Positions 55,634 through 57,973 of a stretch of 64,000 bases of DNA are shown here, in pieces. The stretch covers positions 58,367 through 122,366 of IMG/VR virus record IMGVR_UViG_3300029288_006769, one strand, 5' to 3'. The first letter of the stretch is position 1; each line of letters begins with the position of its first letter. The notes beneath the pieces were generated by a model. That model saw only the letters and a list, made by a program, of their open reading frames with translations, was not told the DNA's origin and did not search any database. The position numbers and the translations under genes were made by a program. Source of the stretch: a virus.

Positions 55634-56362
55634 TCAATTAATGTTTTTTGAAAATCGTCTTTTTTGAGACAAACTTGCTTTTTTTCTATTTTCAGGATTT
55701 GAAAATCTAAGTATTTGTCTCTGACTATTTTGCTGGTTCTGTTCTTTAGTTCTTACTCGACCTTTCGTCTTTTGAACAATTTTTTGAATAATAGCATTTT
55801 TTTCTTCTAAAGACATAGCTCCCCAACGTTTTTTTGTAGCTTCAGAAAGTTTTTTTCTTGTTTCTTGTCCTACTGGAGGTCGTTTCCCTTTTTTTCTCCC
55901 AGTATTTGAATTGTTTTTCTTAAAAAGTTGGGGTACTTTGATTCGTCCTGATGCATAACCTAACTTAAGAGACATAGAAATCTTTTGTTTGACTTCTAAT
56001 CTTCTTGCGGGATTCTTATCCCCAGACAATTTACCCTTAAGAGATTTTGATCTTTTTCGATTTATTTGGATTTTATCTGGATGGTTTGTAAATGTATCTC
56101 CCCCATCGCCACCTTTTGTTAGATTATATCCAATTTCTGGATTAAAAGATTTAAATACATCTATCCAAAATTTCTCTCTATCAGAAAGAATATCCCGTGA
56201 ACATTCTTCAAGAATTTCTTTTTTAAAATTTTTTTCACCATATTTGATTATCGCTTGTTTTAAGACTTTGCCAGAACCTAAATAAGATTTTCTATTTCTT
56301 ACATCTTTGCCAATGTAAATTTTCTTATTTACTAAATTTGTAGTTTTATAAATAACACACAT
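55634..56362 (-). CDS. GIY-YIG homing endonuclease
   Basis: CVIYKTTNLVNKKIYIGKD...SYLGSG GIY-YIG core, plus a basic NUMOD-like C-terminal half. Confidence 0.75.
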   Translation of the reverse strand: MCVIYKTTNLVNKKIYIGKDVRNRKSYLGSGKVLKQAIIKYGEKNFKKEILEECSRDILSDREKFWIDVFKSFNPEIGYNLTKGGDGGDTFTNHPDKIQINRKRSKSLKGKLSGDKNPARRLEVKQKISMSLKLGYASGRIKVPQLFKKNNSNTGRKKGKRPPVGQETRKKLSEATKKRWGAMSLEEKNAIIQKIVQKTKGRVRTKEQNQQNSQRQILRFSNPENRKKASLSQKRRFSKNIN

Positions 56363-57189
56363 TATAGAAAAATCAATTCAGTTTCAATTTGTTCATTTTC
56401 TATTTTAATCAGAACAAAAGTAGTTCTTTGCATTTGCCCAGGTTGTATTACTAAAGTTTTGTTAAGATTTTTTCGCCATACATTGGTGATTGAATGACTT
56501 TCATGTATATGGCCACAAAGAAACATAGTAGGTTGTTGTACCTTTATCCATTCATAAATAGATTTTGATCCCACACGCTCTAATCTATCATAGCCTGTAG
56601 GTGTTCTTCTACCACAAACGTCAAGTTCTAAGTTTTTGGGTGGCATGTGACATGACATTATAAGGTTTTTATGAAGAATGACTTCTTTAGCAAGATCTTC
56701 TTGTATTGTACTCTTTTTTGCTAAATATTTATCTATGTCAAGTATTTCTATACGCTTACCATCTTCTGTATAATCGACTCCATCAAGACAAAAAGGTCTC
56801 ATCCATCCTCTATAGTCTAGTTTGCAAATTGACTTTAAAGCAAATGGGTAATCACAAACATAAGGATACGCTTTAAAAAGAAAACCTTCTATCTCAACAG
56901 GTTCTTCATTTAAGAGACTCCCAAATTTCCTGAATTCTTTTTTCATTGATACTAAATCGTCATTTCCGAAAGTCGCAAGAATTTTTATTCCATTGTCTTT
57001 TGCTTTCTGATAGAACTCTTTTAAGAATTTCTTTACAAAAGTCATTTGAATTTCAGGTAGATTTCGTCCTTTAGGAAGGATATCAGCACCCAGATGAATT
57101 ATTTTTATTTGATGGTCAAGAGCATAAGATAGAATTTTCTTATATTTCTCTTGATCACCATGAAGATCTGTAGCATAAAGAAACAACAT
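56362..57189 (-). CDS. Calcineurin-like metallophosphoesterase
   Basis: Motifs DLHGD, GADIL, GNDD, GHIH in the canonical order. Confidence 0.75.
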   Translation of the reverse strand: MLFLYATDLHGDQEKYKKILSYALDHQIKIIHLGADILPKGRNLPEIQMTFVKKFLKEFYQKAKDNGIKILATFGNDDLVSMKKEFRKFGSLLNEEPVEIEGFLFKAYPYVCDYPFALKSICKLDYRGWMRPFCLDGVDYTEDGKRIEILDIDKYLAKKSTIQEDLAKEVILHKNLIMSCHMPPKNLELDVCGRRTPTGYDRLERVGSKSIYEWIKVQQPTMFLCGHIHESHSITNVWRKNLNKTLVIQPGQMQRTTFVLIKIENEQIETELIFL

Positions 57190-57212
57190 GATATTACTCC
57201 AGGGGGAAATTT

Positions 57213-57368
57213 ATGCAAAAGAAAGAGCAAACAAATGTTGAGAAAATTGCTGCTCGTGGTCACAAACGTCTAGATGATTATTATAATAAGAAAATCAAGA
57301 AATCTAAATATAGTGAAATTCCTGATTATTTAAGAGAGGTTAGATACAACGATCCATCAAAAACTTAA
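57213..57368 (+). CDS. Candidate 51-aa basic protein (below the ORF-track cutoff)
   Basis: Strong RBS aggggga 6 nt upstream of the ATG. Sits in the gap between two minus-strand genes. Confidence 0.3.
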   Translation: MQKKEQTNVEKIAARGHKRLDDYYNKKIKKSKYSEIPDYLREVRYNDPSKT

Positions 57369-57973
57369 AAATGATAACTATTTGAAGGTTTCCTTACTTT
57401 CATTTGCCACCAAACTTCGGGACAATCTTTCAAATTCCATTGAATTTTTCCGTTCTTGTTTTTCATGACAAGACCTTCATTTTCAGGATCTTTGATTACT
57501 TCATTATAGACTTCATGGAAATTGTTGGAAAATGTTTTTGCAAGCGTAAAATGCGTATGCTGTTCTTCTCCAAAAATGTCTTCAATCATTTTTCGACGAA
57601 CTTCAAGCGTCTCCATGACTTGGATACCTTTGTACCAGTAAATGTCATATACATAAATGTAATGCTTGATATGTTTTGTTTTATGATGCAAAAGTTCTGC
57701 ATCAATATGACAGCCCGAAGGGATTTTGAAAGAATTTAATTCATGAAGAAGCTCTGTGGCGGGTTGATAAGATAAAATTTCTTTATGACTGTTCCAGAAA
57801 ACAAATCCATTGAAACTTGTTTTTTGAGAAGCTTCTGTTGGATCATTCCGAAGAGCTAATCTCGAACCATTCTTTTTTACTTCAGCCCACCAATCTGGAT
57901 CAGCTGATATTTCAGTAAATTTCGTGCTGTCAACAGTGATAAGGACAGGTTTATTTGGATAAAAATAAAGCAT
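57365..57973 (-). CDS. Minimal ATP-dependent polynucleotide ligase (nucleotidyltransferase domain only), RNA-ligase-like
   Basis: Covalent NTase motifs in order: I KKNGSR (KxNG variant as in Rnl1/Trl1-type RNA ligases), III HIDAELL, IIIa YIYVYDIYW, IV EGLVMKN, V WQMKVRK. 202 aa. Confidence 0.6.
   Translation of the reverse strand: MLYFYPNKPVLITVDSTKFTEISADPDWWAEVKKNGSRLALRNDPTEASQKTSFNGFVFWNSHKEILSYQPATELLHELNSFKIPSGCHIDAELLHHKTKHIKHYIYVYDIYWYKGIQVMETLEVRRKMIEDIFGEEQHTHFTLAKTFSNNFHEVYNEVIKDPENEGLVMKNKNGKIQWNLKDCPEVWWQMKVRKPSNSYHF

Follow-up and report, generated by a model that had tools for sequence, protein, structure and literature searches.

Ligase scaffolds and the phage locus

Reviews of DNA ligases describe a nucleotidyltransferase (NT or NTase) domain plus an OB domain as the minimal working scaffold (PMC7470946), and a survey of minimal ligases, which covered only proteins of 250-370 amino acids (aa), remarked that “NT-only” entries “appear to be partial sequences” (PMC8455567). 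Among RNA repair systems, bacterial Pnkp (Pnkp/Hen1) combines kinase, metallophosphoesterase (MPE) and ligase components. Fungal Trl1, in its ligase domain (Rnl6), and archaeal MthRnl (Rnl3) carry the KxNG form of motif I, whose Asn is dispensable in both enzymes; T4 Rnl1 and DNA ligases have Asp at this position (PMC6379707, PMC4797309).

Here we analyze a 64,000-nucleotide stretch (hereafter the window) of the virus record IMGVR_UViG_3300029288_006769, positions 58,367 to 122,366, which comes from a low-GC (~35%) huge phage. As in Pnkp, the gene for a covalent NTase lies near one for a calcineurin-superfamily phosphoesterase, on the same strand. The NTase is a 202-aa protein that we call the mini-ligase (57365..57973, minus strand), and the phosphoesterase is an MPE (56362..57189, minus strand). 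An initial annotation interpreted the pair as a split Pnkp-like RNA repair module. We consider it probable, instead, that the mini-ligase represents an OB-less family of DNA-ligase type, that the MPE is an independent neighbor, and that their pairing reflects lineage synteny.

A bare nucleotidyltransferase domain of DNA-ligase type

An AGGAGG ribosome-binding site lies 8 nt ahead of the mini-ligase open reading frame (ORF), which ends in TAA. Its product is a bare covalent-NTase domain with all five catalytic motifs and no OB domain; as had been noted from the sequence, AEVKKNGSR (I), DAELL (III), YVYDIY (IIIa), NEGLVMK (IV) and WWQMKVRK (V) follow one another in the canonical order, with K33 of KKNGSR as the predicted nucleophile. 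The protein thus has the ordered motifs I (KxxG), III, IIIa, IV and V and the conserved lysine of the covalent lysine nucleotidyltransferase superfamily, and its confident AlphaFold model (pLDDT 91.4, pTM 0.87) shows the two antiparallel beta-sheets that form the nucleotide pocket of the NTase fold.

Profile searches place this domain with DNA ligases. In Pfam, the mini-ligase matched PF01068, the ATP-dependent DNA ligase adenylation domain, with 35.5 bits against a gathering cut-off of 26.2, and the motif I lysine, K33, is conserved; no RNA-ligase or capping-enzyme family of Pfam was matched at E<=1. An NCBIfam model of the NHEJ-ligase domain covers residues 23-195. When the single sequence was searched against solved structures, only noise was returned and a family profile was required; a profile of 30 homologues matched human Lig3, Lig1 and Lig4 together with archaeal DNA ligases in the PDB. 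In these alignments, the family motifs KPxL, KxNGxR and EGLVxK face KPMLA, KYDGxR and EGLVLK/EGLMVK, and the sole RNA ligase among the PDB matches listed was NgrRnl, at E ~0.7. Similarly, the top named Foldseek matches among viral models were all annotated as DNA ligases, and no RNA ligase occurred among the best 50. The window protein has no family in PHROGs, where distant members of its family weakly match the ATP-dependent DNA ligase family, and PADLOC returned no defense-system match for it.

The NTase fold, the catalytic residues and extended motifs of the DNA-ligase type, namely KPxL ahead of motif I, KxNGxR and EGLVxK, are therefore established, and the homology of the mini-ligase is to ATP-dependent DNA ligases rather than to Rnl1/Trl1 or the ligase domain of Pnkp. 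The suggestion that its KxNG motif is an Rnl1/Trl1 signature holds in part. The mini-ligase shares KxNG, as KKNGSR, with Trl1 and MthRnl, but T4 Rnl1 has Asp there, and the mini-ligase has neither its closest fold and profile relatives in the Rnl1/Trl1 group nor the N-terminal Rnl1-like subdomain and clade-specific C-domain of that group. Two hallmarks of ATP-dependent DNA ligases are also missing: motif I is KxNGxR rather than KxDGxR, and there is no C-terminal OB domain with motif VI, the protein ending 7 residues past the last motif V lysine.

A large family that naturally lacks the OB domain

A word-indexed search retrieved 36 homologues of 172-223 aa that are 37-88% identical; related loci carry L numbers below. 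Conservation was assessed in 30 aligned close homologues and in 184 members of the wider family, and the motif positions are invariant or nearly so in both sets. The residues invariant among the close homologues are E31, K33, N35, G36, R38, D91, E93, D110, R126, E166, G167, V169, K171, W189, K192 and R194. Within a broad alignment of 80 sequences, K33, E166 and G167 remain invariant, and N35, G36, R62, E93, D110, R126, K171 and K192 are conserved in >=90%. When 1.84 billion cluster representatives were searched exhaustively with a profile, 918 proteins matched at E<1e-3 (346 at E<1e-10), and nearly all of the best 150 matches measure 180-235 aa; the median length of the 184 family sequences is 201 aa. 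Family members score 26.6-66 bits against PF01068. Of the 165 members that cover motif I, 152 have KxNG and 2 have KxDG, and a C-terminal [NS]-Y-x-F tail directly after motif V is widely retained.

Profiles of OB or ligase C-terminal domains detected nothing in the mini-ligase or in its few longer relatives, and no split-off OB domain was found in the small ORFs beside the mini-ligase in the window or in L001, L004, L005, L007 and L008. Because length, stop position and tail are conserved and no OB domain is detectable, the clade is naturally OB-less and not the product of truncation. The mini-ligases thus constitute a large family of ~200-aa phage and prophage proteins, never associated with an OB domain, comprising hundreds of sequence clusters with a signature of their own: KxNGxR, no OB domain and a Y-x-F tail.

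That the gene is an artefact, whether a truncated or decaying ligase gene or an error of gene calling or assembly, would agree with the survey in which NT-only entries were taken as apparent partial sequences (PMC8455567). We regard this as extremely improbable. The conserved length, stop and tail recur over hundreds of cluster representatives; the ORF has a strong ribosome-binding site and a clean stop, and the 175 bp to the next gene are too short for an OB domain. Moreover, independent assemblies show an identical gene structure: a second copy of the locus, on a 16.4-kb contig from another assembly (L050), is 98.6% identical to the window, and the same 202-aa gene was called there. Against the partial-sequence view, the window presents a complete and strongly conserved NT-only protein. 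The searchable literature yielded no account of this OB-less family, although an earlier mention is possible, for example in the RlaP/RNA-repair survey of Burroughs & Aravind 2016.

Compared with the minimal ATP-dependent DNA ligases, such as PBCV-1 ligase, Lig E, Lig C and the ligase domain of LigD, the mini-ligase lacks the OB domain and hence motif VI. The impression of an unusually small ligase-type enzyme is borne out, since the family has ~200 aa (202 in the window), whereas the minimal solved DNA ligases recovered by the fold search have 249-298 residues. Most mini-ligases also replace the motif I Asp of those enzymes with Asn, and, unlike those enzymes, the family has a conserved Y-x-F tail directly after motif V.

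A metallophosphoesterase from another branch

The neighboring MPE (275 aa) is a binuclear enzyme of the calcineurin superfamily. The DLHGD, GNDD and GHIH motifs reported earlier were recovered, within the full calcineurin-like series DxH, GDxx, GNxD/E, H and GHxH on a beta-alpha-beta-alpha-beta sandwich. The metal-ligand set is complete (D8, H10, D36, N76, H181, H227 and H229), and D8, H10, D36, N76, D77, D78, H181, H227 and H229 are invariant in 31 homologues. Because the metal-ligand positions show this invariance, the predicted enzyme is very likely active.

Its relatives nevertheless speak against a Pnkp-like module, in which the phosphoesterase would be expected to be of the Pnkp/lambda-phosphatase type. 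The MPE matches Metallophos and Metallophos_3 in Pfam and phrog_1649 in PHROGs, and its sequence profile found Aquifex aq_1956, MPPED2 and Rv0805/Icc as the only solved relatives. The best structural matches of its model (pLDDT 94) were aq_1956 (21.7), TT1561 (20.4), MPPED2 (18.9) and Mre11 (18.6), followed by Lmo2642, SbcD and Rv0805; the 60 best contained no Pnkp phosphatase or lambda-phosphatase. Judged from this model, the MPE belongs to the aq_1956/TT1561/MPPED2/Mre11 structural branch and not to the Pnkp/lambda-phosphatase branch. It differs from aq_1956, TT1561, MPPED2, Rv0805 (Icc) and Mre11/SbcD in a family-specific insert at about residues 100-170, and is only 14-18% identical to them. 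No SbcC/Rad50 partner turned up near the MPE, the flanking ORFs not having been scanned specifically for one.

The ligase-associated DNA damage response cluster consists of the Lhr helicase, the PdeM phosphoesterase, an ATP ligase and an exonuclease. The local block contains no Lhr helicase or exonuclease, and an NCBIfam scan of the MPE found no PdeM, only a weak YfcE-like match (E 0.09). The PADLOC result for the MPE was a partial match only, to the candidate system PDC-S10. The protein is 100% identical to one listed on a 424-kb metagenomic contig, and at least 269 close family matches make its family much larger than that of the mini-ligase. As part of the explanation we favor, the MPE is probably an independent phosphodiesterase of a kind found widely among huge phages.

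Adjacency probably reflects lineage synteny

The initial annotation placed the MPE immediately downstream of the mini-ligase. It is indeed the next gene on the same strand, but the two genes do not abut: they are 175 bp apart, and the spacer carries a conserved opposite-strand ORF, p51 (57213..57368, plus strand), which encodes a basic, lysine-rich protein of 51 aa. Gene calling recovered this ORF in L001-L003 and L050; it has protein-level matches in L001-3 (8e-27) and L011 (4e-10), lacks any Pfam match and may be a real small gene.

The order topoisomerase I, (HNH), SLT, mini-ligase, p51 on the opposite strand, MPE, p96, LigA, p165 and RlaP, with the CCA-adding enzyme further on, is kept in the close lineage (L001-L003, L011/L035 and L050). 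At 60-63% identity it loosens: L007 has an extra ORF between mini-ligase and MPE, and in L008 the MPE lies 4 kb away on the other strand. At 52% identity (L005 and L006), topoisomerase I, LigA and RlaP are retained and the fetched region has no MPE. Beyond this, no MPE was present in the fetched flanks of 12/12 distinct distant viral mini-ligase loci or of 8/8 loci from metagenome-assembled genomes (MAGs), the latter collected in a genome-collection scan with a narrower alignment. Conversely, no mini-ligase occurs within 10 kb of the MPE in L009, in L010 or in 14/15 MPE-centered viral loci. Overall, the two genes are unlinked in L004-L006, L012-L034 and L036-L049.

Since each gene occurs widely without the other outside the close lineage, their adjacency is, within the explanation we favor, probably lineage synteny inside a mixed block of replication, repair and RNA-end genes. 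These results also count directly against a split Pnkp-like module, a picture that fails once the relatives are examined, and the case warns against over-reading gene adjacency.

The contexts of distant mini-ligases are of another kind, comprising integrase, ParB-N, DUF4942 methyltransferase, HTH regulators, AAA ATPase and many small ORFs. One subfamily, found in temperate phages and Desulfobacterota MAGs, has a ~210-aa protein, p210, ending ...RTFARQYKPSIR, encoded immediately upstream of the mini-ligase and often overlapping its start. It was seen in 6/8 MAG loci and in most of the viral loci; the loci with it are L004/L019, L012, L014-L018, L023 and L027-L032 (e.g., L028:7306-7929). Pfam and PHROGs contain no relative of this protein and the PDB no credible one; it is also unrelated to the mini-ligase, and the window encodes no homologue of it. 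It may be the true partner of OB-less ligases. In the mini-ligase family as a whole, no conserved nucleic-acid-binding partner was seen.

A LigA gene ~1 kb from the mini-ligase in L013/L014 was considered as a conserved link and rejected, as a PAS histidine kinase follows it. On these IMG/VR contigs, positions 5809-11467 carry LigA and then a PAS histidine kinase/response-regulator hybrid, which is probably host flank, and this LigA is probably a host ligA beside a prophage.

The local gene block

Downstream of the MPE, a GIY-YIG homing endonuclease gene (55634..56362, minus strand; phrog_314 at 1e-34 plus GIY-YIG) begins on the final base of the MPE gene. It is absent from that position in L001-3, L007 and L011, and is a mobile insertion that lies outside any module. 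Between the MPE and LigA, p96 (55240..55530, minus strand) encodes a Cys-rich protein of 96 aa that has homologues at the same position in the huge-phage lineage (L001-3, L007, L008 and L011) and no Pfam match. The presence of a full-length NAD-dependent LigA (53145..55109, minus strand) was confirmed by its Pfam domains, DNA_ligase_aden (3e-38), OB, HhH and BRCT.

A terminator-like hairpin with a 16-bp stem followed by a T-run lies at 55171..55205 (minus strand). It is the only such site on either strand of 55000-58200, with none between mini-ligase and MPE, which suggests that SLT, mini-ligase, MPE, homing endonuclease and p96 could form one transcription unit. Promoter-like sites in the region did not rise above chance.

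RNA-repair genes elsewhere in the window

The split-module proposal further holds that mini-ligase and MPE would heal and seal RNA ends together with RlaP and the CCA-adding enzyme, countering tRNA damage by host anticodon nucleases. Several observations are compatible with it. Besides the KxNG motif shared with Trl1 and MthRnl (PMC6379707, PMC4797309) and the possible co-transcription of mini-ligase and MPE, the genes for RlaP, an RNA-repair nucleotidyltransferase of the Pol-beta type, and for the CCA-adding enzyme lie 3-9 kb downstream of the mini-ligase, a synteny conserved in the close lineage; in L007, the RlaP gene is immediately upstream of it. In jumbo phages, RlaP has a distribution that matches the one of RNA ligases (PMC7824862). 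A canonical RNA ligase was found in 0/20 of the further larger window ORFs scanned with Pfam, and LigA already serves the phage DNA.

Closer inspection of these components points the other way. The CCA-adding enzyme gene reported earlier is present (47621-50804, minus strand) but interrupted, exactly at codon 241 and at the start of the HD-domain motif GDVW, by an 1864-bp insert with a 337-aa NUMOD3 ORF (48987-50000) and a 238-aa ORF (48298-49014); in L001 and L011 the gene is intact and encodes 438 aa. The interruption could represent an endonuclease-bearing intron or a split gene, and an Rfam scan of the window was empty, so that no intron model backs it. The RlaP gene (51562-52688, minus strand) is divided into ORFs of 78 aa and 287 aa by a 2-nt insertion near 52541. 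This split is probably real, because it was called identically in the independent, 98.6% identical assembly L050. In L002 and L003, RlaP is split otherwise, into ORFs of 213 aa and 158 aa that are directly followed by a TnsA-like ORF of 242 aa. The gene has thus been disrupted more than once, and its frameshift here and in the sister strain argues against an RNA-repair module, as does the lack of tRNA genes in a tRNA scan of the window.

Likewise, neither RtcB nor a polynucleotide kinase was found in the same 20 ORFs, and the local block, which would need a kinase to resemble the Pnkp system, has none. The two genes that had been offered as repair parts match families of nucleotide metabolism: the “HAD phosphatase” (13184-13759) matches NT5C, of the deoxyribonucleotidase family, and the matches of the “P-loop kinase” (39353-39799) are families of thymidylate and deoxynucleoside kinases. 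By these family matches, their products appear to be nucleotide-pool enzymes, encoded 18-44 kb away, and not end-healing enzymes. Together with the MPE being of another branch and adjacency being confined to one lineage, with no MPE near ~20 distant mini-ligases and no mini-ligase near most MPE loci, this makes the split Pnkp-like module unlikely.

Possible activity and substrates of the mini-ligase

If the mini-ligase acts as its motifs predict, K33 would attack ATP to form a lysyl-AMP enzyme intermediate, the AMP would be transferred to the 5'-phosphate at a nucleic-acid break, and attack by the 3'-OH would seal the break. Without an OB domain and motif VI, the enzyme would probably need a partner supplied in trans or a specialized substrate, since the OB domain is held essential for DNA binding and positioning (PMC7470946).

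The explanation favored here, an OB-less family of DNA-ligase type beside an independent MPE, has to be weighed against several points. The OB domain is called essential for DNA ligation as such in reviews (PMC7470946). The mini-ligase has Asn, like the RNA ligases Trl1 and MthRnl, at the position where Chlorella virus DNA ligase, in work cited in PMC4797309, requires Asp for DNA adenylylation. RlaP, the usual companion of RNA ligases (PMC7824862), and the CCA-adding enzyme are syntenic with it. Finally, mini-ligase and MPE may be co-transcribed, with no terminator to separate them.

Single NTase domains can contribute to ligation. The N-terminal domain of T4 Rnl2 alone is reported to seal a pre-adenylylated nick. 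Likewise, the N-terminal module of DraRnl is dispensable for phosphodiester formation at such a nick (PMC1807946). By likeness to the T4 Rnl2 N-domain and the DraRnl C-domain, an NTase domain without an accessory domain could therefore carry out part of the ligation pathway. Those single domains are laboratory truncations of two-domain RNA ligases, whereas the single-domain form of the mini-ligase is natural and conserved, and its scaffold, unlike theirs, is of the DNA-ligase type.

These truncations bear on another rival, in which the mini-ligase would be a non-ligase adenylyl- or nucleotidyl-transferase that AMPylates a protein or small molecule, or a binder of nucleotides, caps or adenylylated ends like snurportin. 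The missing OB domain and motif VI argue against classic ligation (PMC7470946), and the absence of a family-wide nucleic-acid-binding partner fits as well. Yet the catalytic lysine and motifs III, IV and V vary little or not at all across the family, which indicates covalent catalysis rather than mere binding, and truncated RNA ligases without the extra domain still seal a pre-adenylylated nick (PMC1807946). On this evidence, a non-ligase function seems distinctly improbable, less likely even than the Pnkp-like module.

A bolder form of the favored explanation would make the ~200-aa KxNG proteins true polynucleotide ligases that work without an OB domain, either alone or docked onto a partner through the Y-x-F tail; in this phage, the enzyme could also be an ATP-powered back-up for LigA when host defenses deplete NAD+. 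The docking partner would be p210 in temperate phages and a clamp or other factor in huge phages. We consider this possible but doubtful. The window also encodes a nicotinate phosphoribosyltransferase, NAPRTase, for NAD+ salvage (8199-9479, minus strand), an enzyme of relevance to the NAD-dependent LigA and to NAD-depleting host defenses.

Regarding substrates, DNA or DNA/RNA-hybrid nicks, with the mini-ligase acting as an ATP-using ligase alongside the NAD-dependent LigA, are our tentative first choice, rated a little short of an even chance because of the DNA-ligase-clade scaffold and the DNA-related contexts of distant relatives. Some other adenylyl-transfer role appears rather unlikely. 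RNA repair with RlaP and the CCA-adding enzyme seems slightly less likely again; KxNG, the RlaP/CCA synteny within 3-9 kb and the reported correlation between RlaP and RNA ligases (PMC7824862) keep such a role in view.

The answer would matter in either case. If mini-ligases ligate, they would be the smallest natural ligases, would redefine the minimal ligase by overturning the NT plus OB view, and could find use as small enzymes; otherwise, they would represent a new use of the ligase catalytic domain. In jumbo phages, ATP- and NAD-dependent ligases have been reported in mutually exclusive phage sets (PMC7824862), whereas here genes of the ATP type and the NAD type lie within 3 kb of each other. 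The two ligases in one phage may, speculatively, provide cofactor redundancy.

Other features of the window

A GIY-YIG/NUMOD3 homing endonuclease gene (9412-10185, minus strand) overlaps the end of the NAPRTase gene. The two GIY-YIG/NUMOD3 genes and the insert in the CCA-adding enzyme gene suggest heavy homing-endonuclease traffic in this genome.

On the minus strand at 21251-26116, two neighboring ORFs encode a protein of 853 aa, which has an Hcp (type VI secretion tube) domain, and one of 766 aa, which combines Listeria-Bacteroides repeats with an FGE-sulfatase domain; both are possibly virion or host-interaction proteins. At 30293-33679 (minus strand), major-vault-protein domains (MVP_shoulder at 1.4e-24 and Vault_3 at 2e-7) occur in an 874-aa ORF, which adjoins an R2K-clade ATP-grasp protein (32921-33679), a pairing that is unusual for a phage.

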